Part shown: positions 631-63,579 of the stretch, one piece after another
Layout: each line of letters starts with the position of its first letter
Position numbering within the stretch: position 1 is the stretch's first letter
Sequence record: OQ031072
Source of the DNA: Shigella phage SFPB
Direction: 5' to 3' (one strand)
Length of the DNA stretch: 64,000 nt
Notes under the pieces: generated by a model
Databases searched by the model: none
Seen by the model: only the letters and a program-made list of their open reading frames with translations
Told to the model about the DNA's origin: nothing
Program-made: the position numbers and the translations under genes

Positions 631-3330
631 TTAGTGGACTTCAAGCCACGATTTACCAACTTTCCCTGCACCTGTGACCAATGTCTCTTTTCTTAGCCCA
701 AGGTTCTTAGATGCTTGACCATAATACCAGTCAGTTACTGCTTTCACATCTGCTGTCATGCTCTCTGGACATTCCCAGCTTGTTTCATCGTGGTAAGCAC
801 AGAGTAAGCGAGCACCAATAGCTGGTTTACGACCATTCAACTTCATCAAACCCTCATCAATCATACGACGACATGCAAGGTTGATTGCTTCATTCTGAAC
901 TTGTGCTTCTGAACCCATCAGCAAATAGTTCAAGAGTTTGTGTGGAGACTTACACCACAGCCAAGCCCCAGCAACCTTCACAAAACCACCTTTAGCTATT
1001 GCAGCAGTTTTACCAAACACCTCTTCAAGTGCTTTCTTAGTTGCTTTGAAATCAGCTTCCAAGTTGTCTAACAGTTTCTTAATCTTCGGTAAACGCACAA
1101 AGTAAGTCTGCTTAGTCAATGCACCTTCCTGAGTAGTTGCTGCTTTAATTGTTTTAGCAAACTTCTCATCACCTGCACCGAACAACAGGGCATAGATACC
1201 ATTCTTAGCTTTCTTACGCCCCTTGCTAATCTCATGAAGAAGATTCTCATCCTGAGTAGCACGACAAGTCAAGATATCTTGCTCATCATTAAGGCTGAAG
1301 TAGATACTGTTCAGAGTGTGAGCATCAGTCCCTGAGTAAACTACGTACAAATCGTTTTCAGAGTCGTAACGCAGATACTTGTCAATCTCTGGATTCAGAT
1401 ACTGGTCAAAGTGTTTACAGTAGTATCTTCCATCCTCTTGACGGACAAACTCAATCTCTTCTTTACCCTCTGTTACCGCTTTGGTGAAGTCTTTATCACC
1501 CATGAAGTTACAGAGTAGTACAAGCTGTGCAGAGTTCATATCAACAGATACTACGTTGGTTCCCTCTTCACAAATCCACACTGCCCTCATTGGCTCACCG
1601 TACACGGCAGCACCAGAAGGTACGTTTACAATACCATACTGAGTCATACGTCCAGTAGAAGTACCAAACACCATTGCACCTGCACTCAAACGACCATCTG
1701 GACGAATCTGGTTCAGCCAACCTTTCTCATCATCCTTTGAGTTCTCAATAGTCCTGCGTCGGTGCATCAAAGTATAGTACTTCGCAATCTTCTGTCCAAG
1801 CTCACCTTCGATTGTATCATAAGAAGACTCTGTAAGCTTTGGTGAAGTCCTAATCAAGCAAGGCTCAAGCACATCTGTGTACTTCTTAACAGACCAGTTA
1901 TGCTCAATGTAATAGACACCTTCATGCTCAATGTAATTCAATCCACAACGTTCAACCATCTCATCCCACTTAGGATGTTTGCGAATCATCTTTTTGTTGT
2001 CTTTGAATCTGCAAACCTTGATAGGACGACCATCAGAATCTTTTTTATAGTTCCAATCATCAGGAATCCAACCAACGGATTTTAAGTAATCCTTCACCAC
2101 AGCTACCTGAGTCATTCGTGAAACTTCAAACTCAATTGGTGTAAATGGTGCATCAATCAAACCAGTGTAGCGACTAGACTCTAATTCAAAGTGATTAACA
2201 ACGTGAACGTTGTAGTACTTCACAGTTTTCACAGTCTTAACTGGCTTCCAATCTTTACACTTCTTGCCAATCTTCTCATTCAGTTCATTACAAACTGCAC
2301 GAGCATCTTTCATTGCTACAAAACCTTCAGGGTACTCTTCTTTTGTGACCGTGTTAGTTGGAGTGTAGCAGTTGCGCTTCTCAACATTAAAAATCTTTGT
2401 AGTTGGCTTACCATACGGCTTGATAGGGTACTGCTTCAACTCACCTTCACGCATCTGTTCACGATACTTTGTCTTAGGGTACTTGGTAATCCTTTTCAAA
2501 CCATCAACGTGACCAAATGTATCTACATACTCGTTCCAAGACTTGGCAAATTCTTCACCTGTGACTTTACCTTTTGTCTTAATAGTTGGTGGAAGGTGTG
2601 GTTCAACCTCAGCAGCCAACTCGTTAGTTAACTTGTCAAGTTCTTTAACGTGGAACTGCATAAGTTCTACATCAGCTTTCCAACCGTTGATAGCTTGCTG
2701 ACTCATCCAGAAGGATGTTTCTTTAGCTCGCATGTAGGTTTCATAAGTGTCAACACCACACTTCTTAAGTTTGAGGTACTCATTATCAAGAGCACGTTTA
2801 GTTTTGGCGTTAATCTTAATATCTTCTACAACACGAGTAAGAATCTCTGCATTCCAGACACCCCACTCTTCAATCTCTGGTTTACGGACACCTACACGAG
2901 CACCCCATGCAGCTAAACCATGAGCACCTTTGTAACCTTTTGGCGTAGGTCTATCCATCCACTGTACGCGAGATTGGATAAGTGAATCCTGAAAGAAGTC
3001 ACCCCAAGGCTTACACTTAGTATTCTCAAAGTTCCACAGGTCAGGTGCAATGTGATTAAACACCCACCAGTCATAACCAAGACCATTGTGGATACAAAGA
3101 CGTTTAGCTTTCAGTGCAAACTCAACACCTTCACGCAGACCACCTTTGATGTATTTTGTATACTTGTGACCAAGAATAGGCTCATCAGTGAAAACCCACA
3201 CAGCAGGTTCATCACTGTCATCTTTATAGTCTGCGAAAGCCATTACGTGTGCTTTTGTAAACTCAAGGAGCAACCCATCAGTTTCTGTATCACCAACCAA
3301 ATGTAATTTTTCGAAATCTACATTGTCCAT
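631..3330 (-). CDS. DNA polymerase, family A, with 3'-5' exonuclease domain
   Basis: About 900 aa; N-terminal exo motif LVGDTETDGL; C-terminal YHDE motif; likely start MDNVDF at 3330 preceded by GAGGAG RBS on minus strand (track start 3345). Confidence 0.9.
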   Translation of the reverse strand: MDNVDFEKLHLVGDTETDGLLLEFTKAHVMAFADYKDDSDEPAVWVFTDEPILGHKYTKYIKGGLREGVEFALKAKRLCIHNGLGYDWWVFNHIAPDLWNFENTKCKPWGDFFQDSLIQSRVQWMDRPTPKGYKGAHGLAAWGARVGVRKPEIEEWGVWNAEILTRVVEDIKINAKTKRALDNEYLKLKKCGVDTYETYMRAKETSFWMSQQAINGWKADVELMQFHVKELDKLTNELAAEVEPHLPPTIKTKGKVTGEEFAKSWNEYVDTFGHVDGLKRITKYPKTKYREQMREGELKQYPIKPYGKPTTKIFNVEKRNCYTPTNTVTKEEYPEGFVAMKDARAVCNELNEKIGKKCKDWKPVKTVKTVKYYNVHVVNHFELESSRYTGLIDAPFTPIEFEVSRMTQVAVVKDYLKSVGWIPDDWNYKKDSDGRPIKVCRFKDNKKMIRKHPKWDEMVERCGLNYIEHEGVYYIEHNWSVKKYTDVLEPCLIRTSPKLTESSYDTIEGELGQKIAKYYTLMHRRRTIENSKDDEKGWLNQIRPDGRLSAGAMVFGTSTGRMTQYGIVNVPSGAAVYGEPMRAVWICEEGTNVVSVDMNSAQLVLLCNFMGDKDFTKAVTEGKEEIEFVRQEDGRYYCKHFDQYLNPEIDKYLRYDSENDLYVVYSGTDAHTLNSIYFSLNDEQDILTCRATQDENLLHEISKGRKKAKNGIYALLFGAGDEKFAKTIKAATTQEGALTKQTYFVRLPKIKKLLDNLEADFKATKKALEEVFGKTAAIAKGGFVKVAGAWLWCKSPHKLLNYLLMGSEAQVQNEAINLACRRMIDEGLMKLNGRKPAIGARLLCAYHDETSWECPESMTADVKAVTDWYYGQASKNLGLRKETLVTGAGKVGKSWLEVH

Positions 3331-5608: not shown

Positions 5609-5809
5609 GTGTTGAAGATGAGAGAGAATAACTTTAAAGTAATTGACCACCGTACAGTGGAACTCTCATCTCTTTCCAAAGAAGTTATGATGGAGCGACT
5701 TGAAAGGGTCGCTTCAAGAAGGAAAGAGATTGCAGAAGAAATCCATGAGCTTGATAAGATTGAAAACGGTCTTAAGGCAGAACTACAACGAAGAGGTGTG
5801 AATGGCTAA
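5609..5809 (+). CDS. hypothetical protein
   Basis: ORF track 66 aa, coiled-coil-like. Confidence 0.35.
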   Translation: MLKMRENNFKVIDHRTVELSSLSKEVMMERLERVASRRKEIAEEIHELDKIENGLKAELQRRGVNG

Positions 5810-7487
5810 ACAGAGAAAACTGAAAGATGCTGGAACATTTGTAGGTCACTGTGCATGTCCACGCCCTCAATGTTTATCTTCAGATGCAGGTTCTATATAT
5901 CGTCATGATGACGGTTCATATTCAATGACATGTTTCAGTTGTGGAAAAGGTTTTCCAGAGTGGGATTTTGATAAAGGGCAGATTGTGAGTACTCATACTT
6001 CAGGTTCAGAGAATAAAAACCGTACATTTCGTGGTATGGATTTAGATGATGTGAAAGAAAACCTAGAAGCAATGGATTTAAAAGACAGGAAGATTCCTGC
6101 AAAAGTCCTTGAGCGCCTTGGTATTAAAGTTGATATTGACGACAATGGTGACATTGATGCGCACTTCTATCCAACATACAAAAAAGATGAAGATGGTAAG
6201 TTGCAACATGTAGGTTATCGTGTTCGTCACAAATATCCAGATGATTATCACAAAGAGCACTTACGTGGGAAGTTGAAAGACTTTTCTGGTGGTGTCGGAG
6301 ATATCAAAGGTGAACTGGCTATGTTCGGTTCATGGATTGCTCCAGAAGGTGGTAACCGTCTTTTCATCTGGGAAGGTGAGATGGAATGTGCTACAGCAAT
6401 CTACATGACTTCTTTAGCAATTAAAGATAAGTCTAGACGTAAGAATTACTGCCACGTTTCTGTACCATCCGGTGCTAATGTTAAGTCTATCAAAGAGAAC
6501 TATCAGTATATTACTTCCTTTGATGAGATTTACCTATGCTTTGATAATGATGAAGCAGGGGCTAAAGCAACTAAGGAAGCTGCTGGTATCTTACCTATTG
6601 AAAAAGTAAGACTGTTCCAGTATCCTGAAGGTATTAAAGACCTTAGTGAGTGGTGGACTAAGTTCTTCAAAGACAAAGATACAGTCTTGGAAGGATTTAA
6701 ACAACGAATCTACAATGCACCTCGTTACTGCCCTGCTGGTATCAAGAACTTTGCAGATGGTTTCGATGCTATGAAGAATCGTGGTCAGATTCCTTTAATT
6801 CCTTTCCCAGATTCTTTCGGGGATTTGAATAAGTTGACTTATGGCGGGTATGGTTTAGGTGAGATTACAACCCTTGCTGCACCTTCATCTGTAGGTAAGT
6901 CTGCATATACTCGTGAAATGATTTACAAAGCATGGAAAGATACTGAGTACAACATCGGTGTAATTCCTGTAGAAGACACTTACGAAGAACTTATGGAAAT
7001 GCTCTGTGCAATCCATCTTAGTAAGCAGATTTCAGAGATTCCTTACGATGAGCGTAATTGGGATGAGATTAAGGTTGCACATGCTGAGTTGTCAAAAGGT
7101 CGTCGTATTCACATCGTAGACCACCAAGGGGCAATTGACCAAGATAACCTGCTGGAGTTTGTTGACTATCTGGTTAACAGCCTTGATTGTAAGATTATCA
7201 TTCTTGACCCTATTACATTGGCGCTGTCACGCTCTGATACAGATGAAGAAGAAGTTCTGTCTGAGTTACTTCGTCGCTGTAAGCGTTATCAGTATGCTCA
7301 GGTAAACGTGTGTCACGTTCGTAAGAGTGCAGGTGGTCAAAAGGCCAACTCTGAAGGTGGTGATATTTCTGAAGAAGATATCAAGGGTTCTGGTGCATAC
7401 TTCCAGATTTCCATGAACAACATTTTGCTTATGCGTAACAAGGTTGACCCAGACCCTGTTAAAAAGAACTTGACAAAATCAAGTTAA
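5802..7487 (+). CDS. DNA primase-helicase (T7 gp4-like), frame-disrupted near 3' end
   Basis: Zn-finger CxxC...CxxC, TOPRIM (EGEMECA, FDNDEAG), Walker A AAPSSVGKS, Walker B IIILDP; frame ends KKNLTKSS* while helicase C-terminus continues in -1 frame. Confidence 0.85.
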   Translation: MAKQRKLKDAGTFVGHCACPRPQCLSSDAGSIYRHDDGSYSMTCFSCGKGFPEWDFDKGQIVSTHTSGSENKNRTFRGMDLDDVKENLEAMDLKDRKIPAKVLERLGIKVDIDDNGDIDAHFYPTYKKDEDGKLQHVGYRVRHKYPDDYHKEHLRGKLKDFSGGVGDIKGELAMFGSWIAPEGGNRLFIWEGEMECATAIYMTSLAIKDKSRRKNYCHVSVPSGANVKSIKENYQYITSFDEIYLCFDNDEAGAKATKEAAGILPIEKVRLFQYPEGIKDLSEWWTKFFKDKDTVLEGFKQRIYNAPRYCPAGIKNFADGFDAMKNRGQIPLIPFPDSFGDLNKLTYGGYGLGEITTLAAPSSVGKSAYTREMIYKAWKDTEYNIGVIPVEDTYEELMEMLCAIHLSKQISEIPYDERNWDEIKVAHAELSKGRRIHIVDHQGAIDQDNLLEFVDYLVNSLDCKIIILDPITLALSRSDTDEEEVLSELLRRCKRYQYAQVNVCHVRKSAGGQKANSEGGDISEEDIKGSGAYFQISMNNILLMRNKVDPDPVKKNLTKSS

Positions 7488-7792
7488 CGAAATGTCGTCG
7501 TCATGGTAAATCAACTGGTATTGCTGGTCACACTTGGTACAATCCAGATACAGGCCGTCTTGTAAAGGCTGCTGGATGTGGTGTTGATATTGATGGTGCA
7601 GCAGAGAATATTCGTCAGCAGTTTGGTATTGGTGAGGCTGAAGACCATTATGATGACTCTATGCCACACTATGAAGATGTTGATTTTGACCGTGAATCTG
7701 GAGAGATTTACACACAAGAGCAACGTGAAAGCTCCACCATTCCACCTGTGATTAACGAGGATAATGATGACTGTCCGTTCGAAACTGATTGA
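7463..7792 (+). CDS. primase-helicase C-terminal segment (continuation in -1 frame)
   Basis: Open frame translating ...KLTKCRRHGKSTGIAGHTWYNPDTGRL..., resembling T7 gp4 C-terminus; no start codon of its own. Confidence 0.6.
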   Translation, partial: KELDKIKLTKCRRHGKSTGIAGHTWYNPDTGRLVKAAGCGVDIDGAAENIRQQFGIGEAEDHYDDSMPHYEDVDFDRESGEIYTQEQRESSTIPPVINEDNDDCPFETD

Positions 7793-8264: not shown

Positions 8265-8672
8265 ATGTCTAAAGTTGTTAAAATGAAAGCTCCGGTAGAG
8301 AAGTACAATGGTCAAGAACGTGAGACTCTGCGTTACCTACTGAAAGATGTTTGGTTCTATTACCTGAACACTATTCCACGTCCTCAAAAGGGTAAATCTG
8401 TGGATAAGCATTTTCCGGGCAAAGATTGTAACTACAGCGTTTCAATTCTGGCAAAAGATGGTAACAAGCTCTTTAAAGAGTTCACCAAATCCAAGCGCAA
8501 TGCTGAAGGTTGGGATAAAGTTACTACAGAGGCTGTTGATGCAGATGACTTCGAAGAGAAGTTTGGTTGTGAGCCTCCGTTTGAAGCTGACACCTATCAC
8601 ATCCTGAAGGTTAGCCGTTCAGCAGCATATAAAGACGGTGCTGTGTGGTCAGCAAAACAGAGTTTCCTGTAA
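8265..8672 (+). CDS. SSB-like protein, N-terminal part (T7 gp2.5-like)
   Basis: ORF track 135 aa; sits in replication module; downstream ORF in -1 frame carries LVPY and acidic tail. Confidence 0.45.
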   Translation: MSKVVKMKAPVEKYNGQERETLRYLLKDVWFYYLNTIPRPQKGKSVDKHFPGKDCNYSVSILAKDGNKLFKEFTKSKRNAEGWDKVTTEAVDADDFEEKFGCEPPFEADTYHILKVSRSAAYKDGAVWSAKQSFL

Positions 8673-9124
8673 TGCTGGTTGAAGAAATCAACGGTAAGCG
8701 TGTTGCAGTTAAGCAGCCTATGAAGAAAATCAAGGCAGCAAAATCTGATAAGCACGATGATGATAAGACTTACGATGTAATTCATCCAGATATTGCAGTT
8801 GGTAACGGCTCATTTGGTAGTGTGATTCTGGCGACTCACTTCTACACATTTGAAGGTAACGTTCTGACCAAGCCAATTCAGGAACAATTTATCATTGATA
8901 CTCTGGTTCCTTACACTGGTGGTACTGGTGGTGCTACTGAGACTGAACTGGATGAAGATGAACTGGCAATGCTTGGTCTTGCAGGTGTTGAAGACAACGG
9001 TGAAATCACTGAAGAAGATGCAAAAGATTCTGGTGATGAAGGTAAAGGTGGTGATGACGATGACGACGACCTACCAAACCCAGATGATGACGACGAAGAT
9101 GATTTCGAAACTGACGACGAGTAA
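8645..9124 (+). CDS. acidic C-terminal protein; probable SSB C-terminal part
   Basis: C-terminus GGDDDDDDLPNPDDDDEDDFETDDE; LVPYTGGTGG resembles T7 gp2.5; internal ATG at 8672 overlaps upstream stop (TAATG). Confidence 0.45.
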   Translation: MVSKTEFPVMLVEEINGKRVAVKQPMKKIKAAKSDKHDDDKTYDVIHPDIAVGNGSFGSVILATHFYTFEGNVLTKPIQEQFIIDTLVPYTGGTGGATETELDEDELAMLGLAGVEDNGEITEEDAKDSGDEGKGGDDDDDDLPNPDDDDEDDFETDDE

Positions 9125-25423: not shown

Positions 25424-27796
25424 ATGCGCATGGTAAATGACCACGCAACGGTAATTAAAAGCTCAAGTACACTGGAAACCTCTCAGGCTCAGATTAAGAT
25501 GACACCTGAAATGTTCAGTCTTCTAAGCTCAGGTGTTTACACATATAAAGAACGTGCTGTAATTCGTGAATTGTCATGTAACGCAGTAGATGCTCACATT
25601 GATTCTGGTAACGTTGATAAACCTTTCTTGGTTCACTTACCAACTCGTTTCGAGCCATTCTTTGAAGTTCGTGACTTTGGTACTGGATTGACTCATGATA
25701 AAGTAATGGACCTCTACATGAACTACGGAGAGTCAACAAAGAATGATTCAAATGACTACATCGGAGCTATGGGTATCGGTTCAAAGTCACCGTTTGCGAT
25801 TGCTCAATCATTTACTGTATCAAGCTACGTTGATGGTGTTGTTAACAAGTACTCTGTATATCTTGAGAATGGTATCCCTCAAGTTACTAAGTTGACTACT
25901 AACCCAACTACAGAGCCAAATGGTTTAGCTGTTCGAGTAGCGGTATCTGATAACCGTATTAACAAGTTTCATGAAGAAGCGAGCAATGTATACTCGTACT
26001 TTAAAGTTAAGCCAGAGTGTAATGTTGAGTACTATGACATTCTTGAAGCAATGACTTCCATTTCTCGTGAAGATGGTGTCTATGATGCAATGAAGTACAA
26101 AGAGAACTGGCGCTCAAATAGTAACAGTGTCCATTTCAACGTAATCATGGGAGATATTGCTTATCCTGTTGAAATGGGCGAGTTGCTTGGTTCAGAGTTT
26201 ACAAGTATTCTGCCTCAGTTCTTCCGTAGTGCTGTAGACCTTGTTAATATCTACATGCCAATTGGTTCAGTGGCTATTGCTGCATCTCGTGAAGCATTAC
26301 AGATGAATGAGACCACTAAGACAAAGATTGTTGAAGCCGTGAAGAAAATCACTAAGACAATCGTTGAAGATGTGGTTAAAGAGATTGCTAATAAGCCAAC
26401 GCTGATTGATGCTGCTCAGGCTTATGATACCATGAGGAAAGAGGCTCGTGAAATCTTTAATCACGTCCAAGATTCTCTGGAGTGGCAAGGTCAGAACTTG
26501 AAAAAGCTTGAACAAAAGCTATTGGGTATTCGTCGTGGTCAGTTAACTGAAGCAGATGGTTCTCCATCATTCTTGAAAGATGATGCAGGTAACTTAAGGC
26601 TTGACAAAGACGGTAATCCAGTCCCTAATATTGGTAATCTGTATGAGCCTGTAGCATATTACAAGTACAGCAGTCTGGAGAATCGTATTCGAGCAACTTC
26701 AGCAACATATTCACAAGATGCTGCCATGTTTAGTATCTTTGGTGCAATGAGTAAAGATAAGTTGAGCAACTATTTGTTCCTTATCAATGACCGTCGAAAC
26801 AAGAACGGGTCTGAAAAGACGACTGGTAAAAATCAGATTATCCGTGGAGCTTGCCGTGACCGTGAACAGGAAGATTCTAACTTCCGTCGCTACAATGGTA
26901 TTGCTTTCTTGTTCAGCAGTCAGCAGCAATTTGATGAATTTGTAGCTCTGCATATGCTTGACAAGACTCTGTTAAGTGTGCATACAATGTCATCTAAAGA
27001 GCACCACTATGAGAAACGTACCATTGTACGTGGAGTGGTGAAGCTGTACAAAGCATTTATATGTCCAAATACTTACATGATTCGTTATACAGAGGTTAAA
27101 GAGAACTTTGATGAGATTGAAGAACCACAACTGTATATCAAAGCACAGAGTGATGAAGTGATTGGTGGAATCTTCTCATGTTCACCAGAACGTGCTGCAA
27201 CGTTGATGACAGAGTTAACTGGACAGTCTGTTTATGTCTTCCGTAAAGCCAACTGGAAAAAGATTCCTGAAGACTGGACAGAAGTCAATGAACAAGTAAT
27301 GAAAGATTTTATTGATAACACTCATTGGATTGAGTATCACCGTTACTTGACTCACCAATATATGACTAATAATCATGATATCACTGATTGTAATGTGATT
27401 TCTCGAAACTTTATGTTTGCTGATAAGCGTAAGTCCAGAGGCCACATTTACAGTAAAGACTTTAAGAAGACTATTTTCTTAGAGGGGAATGAAGAGGCTA
27501 TAGAAGCAATGTTTGGACGCTTGGCATATACTGCTGCACCAGTTGCTTACAAAGATATTACCAGCACTCTTGATACCATTCGCAGGAATATGAGAGGCTC
27601 TTGTAAGCCAAGAAAGGTTCTGGATAACGCTAAGAAGCGTCTTGAAAGTAAGTTCAAAGATTACTTTGAGAAACGCCGTAAAGAAAACTTCTTGCTTTCT
27701 AATCTGGATTGGAATAAAGTATCACCAGTCGAAGTTGGTAAGTTTTTAGGTTTTGACACTAAGAGCATTCCAGAAGATACTGTATGCTGGGATTAA
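25424..27796 (+). CDS. rIIA: rIIA-like protein (GHKL ATPase N-terminal domain)
   Basis: 790 aa; HATPase_c-like boxes ELSCNAVDA, RDFGTGL, GAMGIGSKS; followed by rIIB-like gene. Confidence 0.65.
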   Translation: MRMVNDHATVIKSSSTLETSQAQIKMTPEMFSLLSSGVYTYKERAVIRELSCNAVDAHIDSGNVDKPFLVHLPTRFEPFFEVRDFGTGLTHDKVMDLYMNYGESTKNDSNDYIGAMGIGSKSPFAIAQSFTVSSYVDGVVNKYSVYLENGIPQVTKLTTNPTTEPNGLAVRVAVSDNRINKFHEEASNVYSYFKVKPECNVEYYDILEAMTSISREDGVYDAMKYKENWRSNSNSVHFNVIMGDIAYPVEMGELLGSEFTSILPQFFRSAVDLVNIYMPIGSVAIAASREALQMNETTKTKIVEAVKKITKTIVEDVVKEIANKPTLIDAAQAYDTMRKEAREIFNHVQDSLEWQGQNLKKLEQKLLGIRRGQLTEADGSPSFLKDDAGNLRLDKDGNPVPNIGNLYEPVAYYKYSSLENRIRATSATYSQDAAMFSIFGAMSKDKLSNYLFLINDRRNKNGSEKTTGKNQIIRGACRDREQEDSNFRRYNGIAFLFSSQQQFDEFVALHMLDKTLLSVHTMSSKEHHYEKRTIVRGVVKLYKAFICPNTYMIRYTEVKENFDEIEEPQLYIKAQSDEVIGGIFSCSPERAATLMTELTGQSVYVFRKANWKKIPEDWTEVNEQVMKDFIDNTHWIEYHRYLTHQYMTNNHDITDCNVISRNFMFADKRKSRGHIYSKDFKKTIFLEGNEEAIEAMFGRLAYTAAPVAYKDITSTLDTIRRNMRGSCKPRKVLDNAKKRLESKFKDYFEKRRKENFLLSNLDWNKVSPVEVGKFLGFDTKSIPEDTVCWD

Positions 27797-27875: not shown

Positions 27876-28988
27876 ATGACTACTAAGACTAAAGCACAAA
27901 TCGACGCAGAAATCTATGCACTGGTTAAAGAAGGTAAACTGACCAAAACTGCAATCGCTCTGAAGTATAACACTTCAACCCGTTCGGTAGGTCGTGCTGT
28001 AGAGCGTCATGAAGCAACGCTGCTGTCAGGGAAAACCAAAGCAAAACCTGCAAAGACTCTGAAAGATATTGCTAAGAAAGCTAAAGCAACCAAGAAAGTA
28101 TCTAAGCAGAAAACTGTTGCAAAAGCTGTTAAAGAAGCAGTCAAAACAGAACCTGTGAATGCTCTGCATGAAGCAATGCAGAATAACAGCCAGATTGAAT
28201 ACATGATTACTGGTGATTCTGTTATCATGACTTTCGGTGCAGAGTCTGAGATTGTTGAGTCAACTCATCCTAACTACACTGATATTGTAATGGCTGTTGT
28301 TTCAGGTGAGTACAAGAAAGCTTTTGAACTGATGAACATTCACAAGTCTATTGAGAACTTCACTCAAGGTGCTGTAACCATCAAAGGTGACAACCTGTAT
28401 TACGGTGCTGTTCAGATGCGCTCAACTCTGGTAGACCGTATTCTGGATATGATGAAGAAAGGTGATAATGGTTTTGTTCGACTGATTGCATTCTTCGAAA
28501 AACTTATGGAAAACCCATCAAAAGATTCTGTAGAACAACTTTGGGGCTTCGTATCACACCTTGATGTTGAAATTGATGAAGAAGGTTATATCATCGGCTG
28601 GAAGAAAGTCACAACCCGTGGTGGTAAACTGTTTGACTCTCGTACCTGCAAAGTTCCAAATGATTTGGGTAACATTGTAGAGATGCCACGTTGGATGGTT
28701 GATAATAACCGTCATGTAACCTGCTCTCAGGGTCTGCACGTTGGTGCTTGGGATTATGTAACTAGCTTCTCTGGTGACACTATCCTGAAAGTTCGTGTTC
28801 ATCCTCGTGATGTTGTTTCAGTACCAACTGACTACAACGACATGAAAATGCGAGCTTCCCGTTATGAAGTTGCAGCGATTGTAAATAGTCGCCGTGAAGT
28901 CATCAAAGAGTGGGATGGTTCAGAAGCACTCCACGTAGTTGTAGGTACTGCTGGTGAACTGATTTCTCAGCGTAAACGTGAAGTCTAA
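27876..28988 (+). CDS. rIIB: rIIB-like protein
   Basis: 370 aa directly downstream of rIIA-like gene; N-terminal region resembles T4 rIIB. Confidence 0.55.
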   Translation: MTTKTKAQIDAEIYALVKEGKLTKTAIALKYNTSTRSVGRAVERHEATLLSGKTKAKPAKTLKDIAKKAKATKKVSKQKTVAKAVKEAVKTEPVNALHEAMQNNSQIEYMITGDSVIMTFGAESEIVESTHPNYTDIVMAVVSGEYKKAFELMNIHKSIENFTQGAVTIKGDNLYYGAVQMRSTLVDRILDMMKKGDNGFVRLIAFFEKLMENPSKDSVEQLWGFVSHLDVEIDEEGYIIGWKKVTTRGGKLFDSRTCKVPNDLGNIVEMPRWMVDNNRHVTCSQGLHVGAWDYVTSFSGDTILKVRVHPRDVVSVPTDYNDMKMRASRYEVAAIVNSRREVIKEWDGSEALHVVVGTAGELISQRKREV

Positions 28989-56664: not shown

Positions 56665-56670
56665 AATATT

Positions 56671-56746
56671 AGCAGTGTAGCATAACTGGAAATGCACCAG
56701 CCTCTGAAGCTGAAAGATTAAGGTTCAAATCCTTATACTGCTGCCA
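56671..56746 (+). tRNA. tRNA-Gln (anticodon CTG)
   Basis: Acceptor AGCAGTG/TACTGCT; loop CTCTGAA; G73; CCA. Confidence 0.55.
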
Positions 56747-56777
56747 CTTCTAAGGGTTCTTACGAGAGTCCTTAAAT

Positions 56778-56854
56778 GTGGCCTTATCATAAATGGATAA
56801 TGACCCATGCTGTGAACATGGTCTATACGGGTTCGATTCCCGTAGGTCACCCCA
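56778..56854 (+). tRNA. tRNA-His (anticodon GTG)
   Basis: Anticodon stem CCATG/CATGG, loop CTGTGAA; C73; CCA. Confidence 0.6.
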
Positions 56855-56861
56855 ATTTAAT

Positions 56862-56937
56862 AGCTCAATTAGCTTATATGGTTAAAGCGCGTGTCTGAAA
56901 AACATGAGAACAGGGTTCAAATCCCGATGGGCTACCA
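56862..56937 (+). tRNA. tRNA-Phe (anticodon GAA)
   Basis: Loop CTGAAAA; A73; CCA; T-stem weak. Confidence 0.5.
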
Positions 56938-56953
56938 ACTTTATAGGTGCATA

Positions 56954-57688
56954 ATGAAAGAGATGACAGAACAAAGTAAAGAGATTTTTAATCTCCTTAA
57001 AACCGGTAATGGTTTCTCAAACCCTCTTATTACTGGTGCAGCAGTTCTTGGTGGTACAGTTGCCGCTTCTCAGTCATTAGTAACTTCTATTGGTTCTGTA
57101 TCAGACCCAGCCACACAGCAAATTCTTATTGCTGCTGGACTGACAACAGCCTTATTAGGAAGCTTCACAACAAGCCTTGGAAGTACAACTTCAACGACAA
57201 GTACACTCACTGAGTATGGACAAAAGTCTGTAGATGAGTTTTCACAGCGTATGCAGGTAGCTAAAGGCTACTCTAACGTCATGGGAGCAGTAGGTGAGCA
57301 AGTTGGATGTACACCATTTAGTGGCATTATGGGTGTAGCTACTGAGTACGGCAATAAAGCGATGGATTTGATTAATACCTCCATAGACGCTGTAAACAGC
57401 GTTCTAAGCGATTTGCAAGATGCAATCGATAAAGGACTAGGGACAATCTCTGAACTCGCTACACAGGCTGTTACAGCGATTAATGAGGGCATTGCAAAGA
57501 TTACTGCATATGCTAACGAAGTAGCTCAGATGATTGCAGATGAAGCAGCATTGATTGCAGAATACCTGAAAACAAATATTAATGGTTTCCTTGCAAATGT
57601 TCTACCAAGCTGGTTTGATGATTCATGTAAAACTGGTGTGATTGATACTATTGCAACTCCAGAGATGAAAGAAGCTCTGAACAAATAA
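56954..57688 (+). CDS. hypothetical Ala/Ser/Thr-rich protein with N-terminal hydrophobic segment
   Basis: ATG 56954 just after tRNA-Phe (track start 56891 overlaps tRNA). Confidence 0.45.
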   Translation: MKEMTEQSKEIFNLLKTGNGFSNPLITGAAVLGGTVAASQSLVTSIGSVSDPATQQILIAAGLTTALLGSFTTSLGSTTSTTSTLTEYGQKSVDEFSQRMQVAKGYSNVMGAVGEQVGCTPFSGIMGVATEYGNKAMDLINTSIDAVNSVLSDLQDAIDKGLGTISELATQAVTAINEGIAKITAYANEVAQMIADEAALIAEYLKTNINGFLANVLPSWFDDSCKTGVIDTIATPEMKEALNK

Positions 57689-57689
57689 T

Positions 57690-57781
57690 GGAAGATTAAC
57701 CCTAAAGGTAAGGGAGCAGTTTGCTAAACTGCCAGTAACCGAGAAATCGGCGTACCAGTTCAAGTCTGGTATCTTCCTCCA
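57690..57781 (+). tRNA. tRNA-Ser (anticodon GCT), long variable arm
   Basis: Acceptor GGAAGAT/ATCTTCC; anticodon stem GCAGT/ACTGC, loop TTGCTAA; CCA. Confidence 0.6.
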
Positions 57782-57787
57782 AATTAT

Positions 57788-57863
57788 GTGTCGGTGTCAG
57801 AAATGGTTATGTGCCTGTCTGCAAAACAGGTTTATGAGGGTTCGAGTCCCTTCCGATACTCCA
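57788..57863 (+). tRNA. tRNA-Cys (anticodon GCA)
   Basis: Anticodon stem CCTGT/ACAGG, loop CTGCAAA; U73; CCA. Confidence 0.6.
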
Positions 57864-57895
57864 ATTTATATTAATATCTCTCTCAAAGTTATTAT

Positions 57896-57956
57896 GCCCT
57901 GCTATGAGTATTCTCCCTTTCGCTACCGGAGAGTATTTTTAGACAGGGCTTTTTTA
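57896..57956 (+). terminator. rho-independent terminator ending tRNA array
   Basis: GCCCTG...CAGGGC + TTTTTT. Confidence 0.55.
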
Positions 57957-58020
57957 TAGAGTTATACTTTATGGGCAGACCTATACAGTATGTCTCTGGC
58001 ATACATTGTGGTTTCTCCTT

Positions 58021-58044
58021 GACGGTCTCTGCACCGTCTTTTTT
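58021..58044 (+). terminator. rho-independent terminator
   Basis: GACGGT-CTCTGC-ACCGTC + TTTTTT. Confidence 0.6.
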
Positions 58045-58082
58045 CAGGAGAATCACTATAACTTTAATTTTGGAGAAATACA

Positions 58083-58289
58083 ATGAACGAGACTAATGTT
58101 TACAAAGAACTATATGAAACTCAGAAACAGGCTCAGATGCTTCAAGCAACTGTAATGGCTGTGGCTGAACGTTTAATTGTTGCAACTGGTATTAATCCAC
58201 AAGAAGCAACGATGGATAAACTTCTTAATTTAGTAGATGAAAAGTTTGGTGTAGAACCTAAACAGGAATCTGAAGAAGTTTCTGAATAA
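58083..58289 (+). CDS. hypothetical protein upstream of terminase
   Basis: ORF track 68 aa. Confidence 0.4.
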   Translation: MNETNVYKELYETQKQAQMLQATVMAVAERLIVATGINPQEATMDKLLNLVDEKFGVEPKQESEEVSE

Positions 58290-58295
58290 TTCTAT

Positions 58296-59753
58296 TTGCA
58301 GAGGTGCTTAATGGACTTAAATGTTATTAAGCAGAAGCGAGTGGAAGATGTAAGGAAAGTCCTAGCAGGTGAGTTGGGGCTTTCTGAAGAAGTAAAAGAT
58401 ATTATCAAATCCTTTGGTAAAGACCCCTCTAAATTCCTTCCAACTCAAATTCTGACTTTATTAAGGTACACCCCAGACCAAGTAAGACTCATCTTTAAAT
58501 TGATGACTGACAAGAACTATGTAGCTCCACAGCCTGGCTCTCAAGAGGTATTCTTGAACACTAATGCTGACTTGGTACTATATGGTGGTGCTGCTGGTGC
58601 TGGTAAGACTGCTGCCCTATTAATGGACTCACTAAGGTTTATTGAAGACCCAAACTATAACGCTGTTTATTTCCGTCGAAATACAACACAGTTACAAGGT
58701 GGTTTGTGGCCTGCGGCTAAGAAGTTATTTGGTAAGTTTGGTGGAGTTCCACATGAACAGAAAATGACTATCACTTTCCCTTCTGGAGCAACTATCAAGT
58801 TTACTTATTTGGAACTTGAGAAACACTCAGAAGGTCACCAAGGTATCGAATACTCAGCTATTTATTTCGACGAAGGTACACACTTCTCGGCTTCACAGAT
58901 TTCATATCTTCAGACACGTTTACGTTCTGGTGCTGAAGGTGACTCATATATGAAAATCTCAATGAACCCAGATAGAGACCACTTTATTTATGATTGGGTA
59001 GAACCTTTCCTAGATGATGCTGGATATCCAGACCCAGAGAAGTGCGGTAGGATTCGTTGGTATGTTATGAATGATGGTGTCATGGTTTCTGATTGGGATA
59101 GAGATAAAATTCTTGAAATGTTCCCTCTTGAGATTCCTCAAACATATACCTTTATTTCCGGTACAATTGATGACAACCCTATTCTAGATTTCCTTGAACC
59201 TAAGTATCGTGGTAAATTAGAAAACAACACACCAGTTAACGTTGCACGTTTACGTTTTGGTAACTGGAAAGCTCGTGCTGAAGGTTCAAACTATTGGCAA
59301 AGACAATGGTGTGAAATTGTTGATAGTGTTCCAGCAGATGTATTTGACGTAAGAGCATGGGACTTAGCAGCAACATTACCTTCTGAGGTTAACCCTAACC
59401 CTGACTGGACAGCAGGTGTTAAAATGGGTAAATCTAAAAAAGATGGTTGCTATTATGTGATTAACGTAGTAAGATTTAGAGATAGACCTTCTGGAGTTGA
59501 AACACAAATTAACCAAACTGCTGAAGGTGATGGTAAGCGCACAGGTATTTTTATCCCTCAAGACCCCGGCGCTGCTGGTAAATCCTACGCAACCTCCTTA
59601 TTAGAAAACTTGCTGAGAAAGGTTTCCGAGCAAGAGCTAAACCAACAAATAAAGATAAAGTCACCCGTTTTGCGGGTTTCTCTGCTGCTTCTGAGGCAGG
59701 ACTTGTCAAAATTGTTAGAGGCTCTTGGAATGAAGCATATTTCCAAGAACTAG
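58296..59753 (+). CDS. terminase large subunit (ATPase domain), frame-disrupted before nuclease domain
   Basis: Walker A LYGGAAGAGKTA; DPGAAGKSYA motif; frame ends in atypical sequence while terminase C-terminus continues in -1 frame. Confidence 0.8.
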   Translation: MQRCLMDLNVIKQKRVEDVRKVLAGELGLSEEVKDIIKSFGKDPSKFLPTQILTLLRYTPDQVRLIFKLMTDKNYVAPQPGSQEVFLNTNADLVLYGGAAGAGKTAALLMDSLRFIEDPNYNAVYFRRNTTQLQGGLWPAAKKLFGKFGGVPHEQKMTITFPSGATIKFTYLELEKHSEGHQGIEYSAIYFDEGTHFSASQISYLQTRLRSGAEGDSYMKISMNPDRDHFIYDWVEPFLDDAGYPDPEKCGRIRWYVMNDGVMVSDWDRDKILEMFPLEIPQTYTFISGTIDDNPILDFLEPKYRGKLENNTPVNVARLRFGNWKARAEGSNYWQRQWCEIVDSVPADVFDVRAWDLAATLPSEVNPNPDWTAGVKMGKSKKDGCYYVINVVRFRDRPSGVETQINQTAEGDGKRTGIFIPQDPGAAGKSYATSLLENLLRKVSEQELNQQIKIKSPVLRVSLLLLRQDLSKLLEALGMKHISKN

Positions 59754-59911
59754 AAGGTTTTTGTGGCGATGGTCGTACTAAGGATGACCAAGTGGATGCT
59801 ACCAGTGATGCTTTCAACAGTCTAAACGAAGTTAAACTATTCAAGCCACCTTCAATGGGTGCTCATACAGATATTATGAAGAGTAATCCATATCAGGGGC
59901 TAAGACGCTAA
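59582..59911 (+). CDS. terminase large subunit C-terminal segment (continuation in -1 frame)
   Basis: Translation ...RKLAEKGFRARAKPTNKDKVTRFAGFSAASEAGLVKIVRGSWNEAYFQELEGFCGDGRTKDDQVDATSDAFNSL... with terminase KxDDxVDA..AF motif. Confidence 0.65.
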   Translation: MLRNLLIRKLAEKGFRARAKPTNKDKVTRFAGFSAASEAGLVKIVRGSWNEAYFQELEGFCGDGRTKDDQVDATSDAFNSLNEVKLFKPPSMGAHTDIMKSNPYQGLRR

Positions 59912-59923
59912 TAGGTAGAAAGA

Positions 59924-61387
59924 ATGGCAGATATCACAGAAACACAAGAAAGCCTTCCTCCATTCAGAATGGGTGAGGTTGGGAGTCTTGGCCTTAAAGT
60001 TCGCTCAGGAAGAATCTATGAAGAACCTAGACAGGCTTTAAGATTCCCAGAAAGTATTAAGACTTTCCAACTTATGATGAGAGACCCTTCAGTAGCAGCC
60101 TCTGTAAATATTATTAAGATGTTTGTCAGAAAGGTTAACTGGAGATTCGTACCACCGAAGGGAAAAGAGAAAGATGCCAAGATGATTGAAAGGGCTAATT
60201 TCTTTAACTCACTAATGAATGACATGGAGCACGATTGGGCTGACTTTATTAACTCTGTAATGTCATTCTGTACTTACGGTTTCTGTGTAAACGAGAAAGT
60301 TTATAAGAAACGTCAAGGTAAGAAAGGTAAGTACCCTTCAAAATATAATGATGGTTTAATTGGTTGGGCTAAATTACCAATCCGTAATCAGACTACATTA
60401 GATAAATGGTACTTTGACTCTGACTATAGAAAAGTTATTGGTGTTAGACAGAACCTGCGTAATGTTTCCCATATTGCAGGAGCAATTAATCTTGGTGAAC
60501 AACCATTGACAAGAAAGCTTCCTAGTAAATTCTTATTGTTCAAGTATGACGATGAATACGGTAACCCAGAGGGACGTTCACCATTACTTAATGCTTATGT
60601 TCCTTGGAAATACAAAGTTCAAATTGAAGAGTTTGAAGCAGTTGGTGTTTCCAGAGACTTAGTAGGTATGCCAAAGATTGGTCTTCCACCTGATTACTTA
60701 GGTGAAGATGCAGAGCCTGAAAAGAAAGCTTTTGTTAAATACTGCCAAGAAGTAGTAAATGATTTAATTGCTAATGACAGAGCAGGTTTAATTTGGCCTA
60801 GATTTATCGACCCAGAAACTAAAGAAGATATCTTTGAGTTCTCATTAGTTTCTCGACAGGGTGCTAAAGCTTATGATACAGGTTCTATCATTGATAGATA
60901 CTCTAAGCAAATTATGATGGCGTTTATGTCTGATGTTCTTGCTATGGGACAGTCAAAATATGGTTCATTCTCTCTGGCAGATTCTAAGACAAGCTTACTG
61001 GCAATGTCAGTTGATATTCTTCTGAAGCAAGTGAAGAATGTAATTAACCGTGATTTGGTTGCTCAGACTTATGCACTAAATATGTGGGATGATGAAGAAC
61101 ACGTAGAAATTGTGTATGATGATATTGAGACACCAGACCTTGAAGCTATTGCATCATTCATTCAGAAGACAGTTGCAGTTGGTGCTCTGGAAGTTGATAA
61201 GCCATTGTCTGACAAGCTTAGAGAATATCTTGACCTTGAACCTGCTGATGAGTCTAAACCAGTATCTGAGAAACTATCTCCAAACACTCAAAGTCGTTCT
61301 GGTGATGGTTATCAAACTGCTGGAGAAGGGACTGCTAAAACTCCTTCAGCTAAAGACCCAAGCACAGCTAATAAGGCAAACAAATAA
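59924..61387 (+). CDS. portal protein
   Basis: 487 aa between terminase and prohead protease. Confidence 0.65.
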   Translation: MADITETQESLPPFRMGEVGSLGLKVRSGRIYEEPRQALRFPESIKTFQLMMRDPSVAASVNIIKMFVRKVNWRFVPPKGKEKDAKMIERANFFNSLMNDMEHDWADFINSVMSFCTYGFCVNEKVYKKRQGKKGKYPSKYNDGLIGWAKLPIRNQTTLDKWYFDSDYRKVIGVRQNLRNVSHIAGAINLGEQPLTRKLPSKFLLFKYDDEYGNPEGRSPLLNAYVPWKYKVQIEEFEAVGVSRDLVGMPKIGLPPDYLGEDAEPEKKAFVKYCQEVVNDLIANDRAGLIWPRFIDPETKEDIFEFSLVSRQGAKAYDTGSIIDRYSKQIMMAFMSDVLAMGQSKYGSFSLADSKTSLLAMSVDILLKQVKNVINRDLVAQTYALNMWDDEEHVEIVYDDIETPDLEAIASFIQKTVAVGALEVDKPLSDKLREYLDLEPADESKPVSEKLSPNTQSRSGDGYQTAGEGTAKTPSAKDPSTANKANK

Positions 61388-62230: not shown

Positions 62231-62443
62231 ATGAGTTCGAATATCTTCAGACTTGCTGACAGATTATTCAACCAACCTTTACTAGCTACAGAATCATTAG
62301 CCCACTCAGCAGCGACTTATGTTAATAACCGCTTGTTAGGTGAGGTACAAGCAGCAGTAAACTTCGATAAGCCAAAAGGTGAAGCAAGGAGTCTTTTAAA
62401 GTTAAAGAAGACATTGCTATCATCCCTATTATGGGTGGCCTAA
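62231..62443 (+). CDS. prohead protease N-terminal segment (upstream frame)
   Basis: MSSNIFRLADRLFNQPLLATE... resembles N-terminus of S49-type phage head proteases; main protease frame is -1 relative. Confidence 0.5.
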   Translation: MSSNIFRLADRLFNQPLLATESLAHSAATYVNNRLLGEVQAAVNFDKPKGEARSLLKLKKTLLSSLLWVA

Positions 62444-63579
62444 CACATCGTATGACCTTCATGGATGCAATGTGTACTGGTGGACTAAGTTCTTATGAAG
62501 GTTTACGCAGAGGCTTTGACGAAGCCCTAGCAGATGAGTCTATTAAGACTATCGTGCTGCACGTTGATTCAGGTGGTGGTGAAGCGTCAGGTTGTTTTGA
62601 GTTGGCACGTCACATCATGGCTTCAAGAGGCCAAAAGAAAATTATTGCTTATGTAGATGAGTTTGCTTGCTCTGCTGCATATGCTCTTGCATCTTCCGCT
62701 GAAGAAATTATTGCATCACCAGATGCAGATGTTGGTTCAATTGGTGTGATTATGGTTCACCAAGAATTAACTAAAGCATTTGAAAAGAATGGCGTAACTA
62801 TTAACGTTATTAAAGCTGGTGAATTTAAAGGTATGGGTTCCCCATTCCAAGCATTATCAGAAGAAAGCAAGAATAGACTTCAAAAGAGAATTGATGACAC
62901 TTACAAGACTTTTACTAGTTTTGTTGCAGACTCACGTAATATCTCCGAAGAAGCTGTAAAGAATACTGAGGCGAATGTTTATTCTGCTCAGGAAGCTCTT
63001 GAACTTGGTTTAATTAACTCTATCATGTCTCAAGATGATTTCTTAAATTACTTACAAGGTTCTGAAGAAGCTCCTGTAAGTTTAAACACAAACAATTCAG
63101 GTGAAGAAATGACTGAACAAGAAAAGCAAGAACTAGAAGCTCTGCGTCTTCAGGTTGCTCAAATGAAAGCTAAGGAACAGGAAGCAGTTCTTACAGATTT
63201 AACTGGTAAGGTTTCTGCATCTGCTGAAGCTTTTGGGTTTGATGCAAAAGAAGCTGCAACAGCTATTTTAGGTGCTGGTCTTGACAACCCTCTGAGTGTT
63301 CTGTTTATGAATGCTATGGAAGGTGCTAACCAGAAACTTAATGAAACTATCGCGTCCCATGCTTCTGCCATGTCTGAGAAGGATTCTGAAATCACTAAGC
63401 TGAAAGAAGCTGCTGGTGCTGTTCTGGAACACTCAAACGCTATGGAAGAACTTGGCAATGACGGCGAAGCAGAAGTGGATGATGGTAAAGATACCACTCC
63501 AGAAGCAAATGTTAATGCTAACGCTGACCAACGCAAACTGGCTCTCCAGAATGCTTTGAATACTCTTATCAAGAAATAA
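62431..63579 (+). CDS. prohead protease (S49/ClpP-like) with C-terminal coiled-coil scaffold-like region
   Basis: VLHVDSGGGEASG and CSAAYALASSA motifs; coiled-coil C-terminus; frame open upstream to 62383. Confidence 0.75.
   Translation: MGGLTHRMTFMDAMCTGGLSSYEGLRRGFDEALADESIKTIVLHVDSGGGEASGCFELARHIMASRGQKKIIAYVDEFACSAAYALASSAEEIIASPDADVGSIGVIMVHQELTKAFEKNGVTINVIKAGEFKGMGSPFQALSEESKNRLQKRIDDTYKTFTSFVADSRNISEEAVKNTEANVYSAQEALELGLINSIMSQDDFLNYLQGSEEAPVSLNTNNSGEEMTEQEKQELEALRLQVAQMKAKEQEAVLTDLTGKVSASAEAFGFDAKEAATAILGAGLDNPLSVLFMNAMEGANQKLNETIASHASAMSEKDSEITKLKEAAGAVLEHSNAMEELGNDGEAEVDDGKDTTPEANVNANADQRKLALQNALNTLIKK

Follow-up and report, generated by a model that had tools for sequence, protein, structure and literature searches.

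Frameshifting to −1 is well known for phage structural genes, among them the tail chaperone G/GT and T7 gene 10. In lambda G/GT and T7 10A/10B the reading frames overlap and the downstream part lies in the −1 frame, and the same arrangement is written at a locus of Shigella phage SFPB, where the gene for the terminase large subunit (TerL) runs across two frames. Unlike those two systems, the SFPB locus lacks a slippery heptamer, the RNA downstream of it has an unremarkable predicted fold, and the arrangement is not conserved. Its junction also cuts through the middle of a catalytic domain, and TerL needs both halves.

The closest described genes are the TerL genes of Mooglevirus and Felixounavirus (KPS64, QBP32846.1; Sf17, YP_009618704.1; Moogle, YP_009145724.1), with which the SFPB locus shares its position and its Terminase_6N/6C architecture and to which it is 95.7–99.4% identical at the DNA level. 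The sole difference of the SFPB gene from the Mooglevirus form is a missing C at 59596–59597, which leaves a product of 480 amino acids. Two members of the same genus, the Citrobacter phages BSwM KMM2 (OP902295) and KMM4 (OP902293), likewise have a TerL gene split by homopolymer deletions, at other homopolymer sites than that of SFPB. In KMM4 the gene (1516–3115) is recorded as three 'hypothetical protein' open reading frames (ORFs) and in KMM2 (1516–3116) as two; the two genomes share a shortening from A6 to A5 at the equivalent of window positions 59436–59441, and KMM4 also has C4 reduced to C3 at 58421–58424. Both phages were sequenced by Nanopore R9.4.1 only, with Guppy basecalling, and both are viable, forming plaques with measured burst sizes (bioRxiv 10.1101/2023.06.01.543199). 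An apparently split TerL in this genus is thus a documented result of run-length errors in the genomes of viable phages.

We analysed a 64-kb stretch of DNA (hereafter, the window) that covers the greater part of the SFPB genome. SFPB is a member of Mooglevirus (Ounavirinae, FelixO1-like), and a literature search found no paper describing it. A megablast search against a phage collection matched 286 records, with the top matches all belonging to Mooglevirus (Shigella phages KPS64, ESh20, Henu11 and Sf13–Sf19; 99.0–99.4% identity) and with the Citrobacter phages Michonne, Mordin and Moogle at ~96% to the window. For the TerL region we compared 30 relatives among the matches listed, each covering the full query, and examined the site of the break in detailed alignments of five of them. 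The features of the gene as written in the SFPB record are as follows.

58311..59597, plus strand: TerL codons 1–429, frame 0, native reading; start as annotated in relatives
58587–58610, plus strand: Walker A motif GAAGAGKT, amino acids 93–100, in the packaging ATPase domain
58860–58874, plus strand: Walker B motif IYFDE, amino acids 184–188, in the packaging ATPase domain
59582..59597, plus strand: −1 frame, open upstream of the lesion, reading ILRNL; outside the native protein
59596..59597, plus strand: the lesion, a CC run with one C missing; CCC in all five aligned relatives, in the context T-CCC-T
59598..59753, plus strand: non-native frame-0 tail LLENLLRKVSEQELNQQIKIKSPVLRVSLLLLRQDLSKLLEALGMKHISKN and stop, the C terminus of the 480-amino-acid WBF69689.1
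59598..59911, plus strand: TerL codons 430–533 and TAA, −1 frame, second half of the RNase H-like nuclease domain
59783–59800, plus strand: acidic motif DDQVDA, −1 frame, in the second half of the nuclease domain

A preliminary description of this DNA, made from the letters alone, had reported that the gene is divided between two frames, and the three-frame translation and the ORF list bear this out, with a frame-0 stop at 59753 and a −1 frame open from 59582. The ORF listing begins the frame-0 ORF at a TTG at 58296, and the start annotated in relatives is the ATG at 58311. Frame 0 encodes TerL as far as ...IPQDPGAAGKSYATSL and continues through 50 atypical residues to its stop codon at 59751–59753, a tail that would not exist if the missing base were present. 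A TAA at 59579–59581 closes the −1 frame upstream, making 59582 the 5' limit of a two-frame overlap of 172 nt; the −1 frame reads ILRNLLIRKLAEKGFRARAKPTNKDK...DDQVDATSDAFNSL... and contains ...IRKLAEKGFRARAKPTNKDKVTRFAGFSAASEAGLVKIVRGSWNEAYFQELEGF..KDDQVDATSDAFNSL..., before ending at a TAA at 59909–59911. The deposited protein, identified by exact sequence, is WBF69689.1, a 480-amino-acid 'terminase large subunit' encoded on an 88,550-bp contig. It belongs to a 90% identity cluster of 387 proteins; a length of 533 amino acids is seen in 12 of the 15 members listed, the others being the SFPB entry, a 538-amino-acid form and a 116-amino-acid partial sequence. The gene is flanked by a gene for a 68-amino-acid hypothetical protein and by the portal gene (WBF69690.1), whose homologue starts at 59924, 12 nt past the TerL stop; the order is the same in KPS64, Sf17 and Moogle. 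As a separate observation, the SFPB portal gene as written has one codon fewer than that of KPS64 at 60526, a difference that may be real or an error, giving 487 amino acids compared to 488 in all 14 other listed members of its cluster.

Domain assignments place the break precisely. The Pfam ATPase domain Terminase_6N (amino acids 91–335, 58581–59315, E = 5.6e-42) lies wholly in frame 0. Terminase_6C was matched in two pieces, one in frame 0 from 59355 (profile positions 2–78, E = 1e-10, 42.2 bits) and one in the −1 frame (profile positions 71–154, E = 7e-17, 62.2 bits), and since both frames match one and the same domain the resemblance does not arise by chance. With one C restored, the pieces merge into a single continuous Terminase_6C match (amino acids 349–504, profile positions 2–154 of 155, 112.8 bits). 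The break after amino acid 429 therefore comes midway through the RNase H-like nuclease domain (amino acids 349–504) and not at the border between ATPase and nuclease. That the nuclease is offset by −1 from the ATPase, as had been claimed, accordingly holds for its second half and fails for its first, which shares frame 0 with the ATPase. The locus has the Walker-motif ATPase and the portal-adjacent position in the packaging and head module of a T4-type terminase large subunit, and it shows the contiguous C-terminal RNase H-like nuclease of such a protein only once one C is restored. A search of PDB sequences with the repaired TerL gave no match at an E value of 0.01 or better, so statements on catalytic residues are by analogy only.

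The ortholog alignment that the preliminary description had proposed as a check located the missing base. The window reads ACCTCC-TTATT at the point where every aligned relative reads ACCTCCCTTATT; over a longer stretch, the sequence is GCAACCTCCCTTATTAG in the relatives and GCAACCTCC-TTATTAG in the window. The run is CCC in each of the five relatives aligned, and a split terminase is not conserved among relatives. Of the 30 relatives listed, 28 span 1,621 nt over the region compared to 1,620 in the window and have a single TerL coding sequence of 1,602 nt, the other two being KMM2 and KMM4 with deletions of their own. Inserting one C yields a TerL of 533 amino acids that is identical to that of KPS64 at 533 of 533 positions. 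Searches of viral, genome and metagenome contig collections returned no exact match to the deletion allele, and the CCC allele does match there.

The preliminary description had suggested instead that an A was lost from the nearby A run. An extra A does reopen the frame, but it produces ...TSLLEKLAEK... where the native protein has ...TSLIRKLAEK.... This repair, at 59605–59608, gives LE for the native IR at amino acids 431–432, and the A run itself (GAAAAC) is alike in all aligned sequences; the lesion is in the C run. The native junction peptide is SYATSLIRK and the alternative is SYATSLLENLLR.

Codon comparison 3' of the break, in the restored frame, revealed one synonymous and no non-synonymous differences from KPS64, three and none from Sf17, and 11 and none from Moogle. 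By this measure the downstream part of TerL is still under selection in the restored frame, and nothing in the sequence hints at past evolution out of frame.

To place the TerL break in the context of the whole assembly, we aligned the window to the KPS64 genome (blastn), retaining frame-changing indels without a nearby compensating indel, and checked for split genes by tblastn with KPS64 proteins as queries. Three further genes proved to be split in this comparison, and a fourth, for an HNH endonuclease, is split relative to other relatives.

5802–7789, plus strand: DNA primase/helicase, split; lesion at 7475..7478, A5 in relatives reduced to A4
8265–9121, plus strand: homologue of gp27 (conserved hypothetical), split; lesion at 8666..8667, TCCCT reduced to TCCT, as at TerL
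55269–55683, plus strand: HNH endonuclease, split; insertion at 55359..55362, AAA extended to AAAA compared to BPS15Q2 and 11 other relatives listed
62231–63573, plus strand: head maturation (prohead) protease, split; lesion at 62398..62400, A4 in relatives reduced to A3

At the primase/helicase site, 24 of the 25 relatives listed are 1 nt longer and have an intact gene, the exception being the Nanopore-only KMM4; at the gp27 and protease sites, every relative listed is 1 nt longer with the gene intact. Ten other large genes are intact in the window by tblastn with KPS64 proteins. The HNH endonuclease gene sits between the genes for tRNA-Gly and tRNA-Thr and is found in BPS15Q2 and FelixO1 but not in KPS64. 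Counting TerL, run-length errors appear to have frameshifted at least five genes of the deposited SFPB genome and to have shortened tRNAs.

The window differs from KPS64 at other places too. A different HNH endonuclease gene, gp36 (~510 bp, KPS64 26953–27463, after the DNA polymerase gene), is missing at ~622–626, so that this homing endonuclease is polymorphic for presence or absence. Two in-frame length differences, which may be real or errors, are a loss of 9 nt from rIIB at 28073 and a gain of 3 nt at 63573, where the protease gene ends, beside its stop codon.

One-base deletions unique to the window were also found outside coding sequence, at six sites that we compared with KPS64, Sf17 and Michonne, representing three species.

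3339: ribosome-binding site of the DNA polymerase gene
21030: 3' arm of a terminator stem, GGGAAC...GTTCC[C]TTTTT
53338: T arm of tRNA-Lys-TTT
53747: intergenic run, C5 reduced to C4
56512: acceptor stem of tRNA-Gln-TTG, with the predicted fold changing from −20.6 to −17.3 kcal/mol
57706: D loop of tRNA-Ser-GCT

The extra base is present at all six sites in the three genomes alike. ARAGORN still calls the affected tRNAs, 1 nt shorter or shifted. As a control, we counted isolated one-base indels in a ~5-kb tRNA region and found 1–2 between pairs of good genomes compared to 9–10 between the window and Sf17 or Michonne, a roughly fivefold excess. A tRNA-Tyr(GTA)-like sequence at 52658–52738 was considered separately: it receives no ARAGORN call and scores 22.8 bits compared to the Rfam tRNA gathering threshold of 29. 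The surrounding segment (52560–52780) is 100% identical in ESh19 and KMM4, which rules out a sequencing error here and identifies a natural tRNA-Tyr allele; tRNA-Tyr is annotated in Sf13–Sf18, and the KPS64 allele differs.

Five of the deletions share the context TCC[C]T on the same strand, a context that accounts for ~1.4% of homopolymer runs (binomial P ~3e-7). Such a bias is typical of k-mer-specific basecalling error. It is a partial bias, and a global collapse of TCCCT is ruled out by the 45 copies that are left in the window. The distribution of the indels is less easily accommodated: about half of the one-base indels unique to the window fall in the 6-kb tRNA cluster (52000–58300), which makes up ~10% of the window, and coding sequence holds comparatively few of them. 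The skew exceeds what a model of uniform homopolymer error predicts and weighs against reading the indels as artifacts. Structured DNA, local coverage and partial curation of coding sequences are possible causes, and genuine polymorphism may account for some indels outside coding sequence.

Based on these comparisons, we consider the TerL split to be an assembly or basecalling run-length artifact in the deposited SFPB genome, with a probability of about 0.9. Positions 58311–59911 would then hold an ordinary TerL gene, coding for a packaging ATPase at the N terminus and an RNase H-like nuclease at the C terminus, in which CCC was probably miscalled as CC at 59596–59597, producing an apparent −1 frameshift. 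The real gene is most likely one ORF of 1,602 nt whose 533-amino-acid product is identical to KPS64 TerL, and the calling of CCC as CC would be why the deposited record annotates a truncated protein of 480 amino acids. The same error process would also have shortened or lengthened about ten other homopolymers in the window. The preliminary description had put a homopolymer deletion in the assembly first among its explanations, and that preference gains support from the extra base in relatives, from the 100% identity to KPS64 on repair and from the further damage to genes, tRNAs and a terminator. The locus looks as a run-length error should: a one-base indel in a mononucleotide run, an allele unique to one record, relatives that agree with one another, many other indels in the same assembly and no decay downstream. 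The indel, its restriction to the SFPB record, the intact protein on restoration, the other broken genes and the lack of recoding signals can all be read directly from the sequences; from these we infer that the cause was technical (long-read or flow-chemistry homopolymer miscalling) and not a real mutation.

The best surviving alternative is that the deletion is genuine and was present in the DNA that was sequenced, either in a defective genome or in a dominant mutant accompanied by a helper wild type, with TerL truly 480 amino acids long. The deletion does stand in the deposited sequence, the depositors annotated the 480-amino-acid product, and a change from CCC to CC is plausible as replication slippage. 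Nonetheless, four conserved genes would have been hit together, three of them essential (primase/helicase, prohead protease and terminase), and a plaque-forming lytic phage cannot lose these three simultaneously. A truncated TerL would lack the second half of the nuclease fold, including DDQVDA. Non-synonymous changes 3' of the break number zero, and the window shows the fivefold excess of isolated one-base indels over pairs of good genomes. We therefore regard a genuine mutation as unlikely.

Programmed recoding, by −1 ribosomal frameshifting or transcriptional slippage within 59582–59753, would yield full-length TerL and perhaps a truncated regulatory form as well. A −1 shift anywhere in the 172-nt overlap would give a fusion, and the preliminary description had listed an unusual programmed shift as its second option. 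The search for a slippery site, the lack of conservation and the position of the break inside a domain all go against that option. The zero frame contains no X_XXY_YYZ heptamer in 59570–59753. Transcriptional slippage would lack a long A/T run, as none of about 8 or more occurs at the junction: no run in the overlap exceeds A4 or T4, and the lesion itself affects a C2/C3 run. The predicted RNA fold at 59599–59720 (−31.3 kcal/mol) is unremarkable, with z = −1.82 and 10 of 200 shuffles equal or better, and has no slip site against which to be positioned. To give the native sequence, the shift would have to occur exactly at codons 429–430 (UCC UUA), where re-pairing of the tRNAs is probably impossible. 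Every relative listed with a TerL annotation carries the gene in a single frame, which in effect refutes recoding, and the four other broken genes would need recoding sites too. Recoding thus seems to us very improbable.

A naturally split terminase, in which the C-terminal part of the nuclease would be made as a polypeptide of its own and join the 480-amino-acid fragment, has a precedent in that split phage genes exist, with homing endonucleases, introns or inteins among the interrupting elements. In the −1 frame from 59582 to 59911, no ATG, GTG or TTG start yields an ORF of at least 40 amino acids, and the sole methionine leaves 18 residues, so that a C-terminal fragment of that size has no start codon. 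Nor is there any inserted sequence relative to intact genes; the cut passes through the RNase H-like fold, and the arrangement is absent from listed relatives, with no exact match in viral, genome and metagenome contigs. Given no start codon and no conservation, we regard a split of this kind as refuted. Finally, that a viable SFPB truly has the CC allele and makes full-length TerL by a heptamer-independent −1 shift at UCC-UUA, with the like in the primase/helicase and protease genes, strikes us as far-fetched; if true, it would mean that a lytic phage tolerates frameshifts in essential genes across its genome.

With the run-length artifact as the preferred reading, the TerL split of SFPB has no biological significance, and the practical value of the result lies in curation of the SFPB record, whose run-length errors automated scans will go on flagging as frameshifts or pseudogenes. 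The lesson for phage genomes is that, when an essential gene appears to be split, a comparison with close relatives and with the remainder of the assembly should come first.
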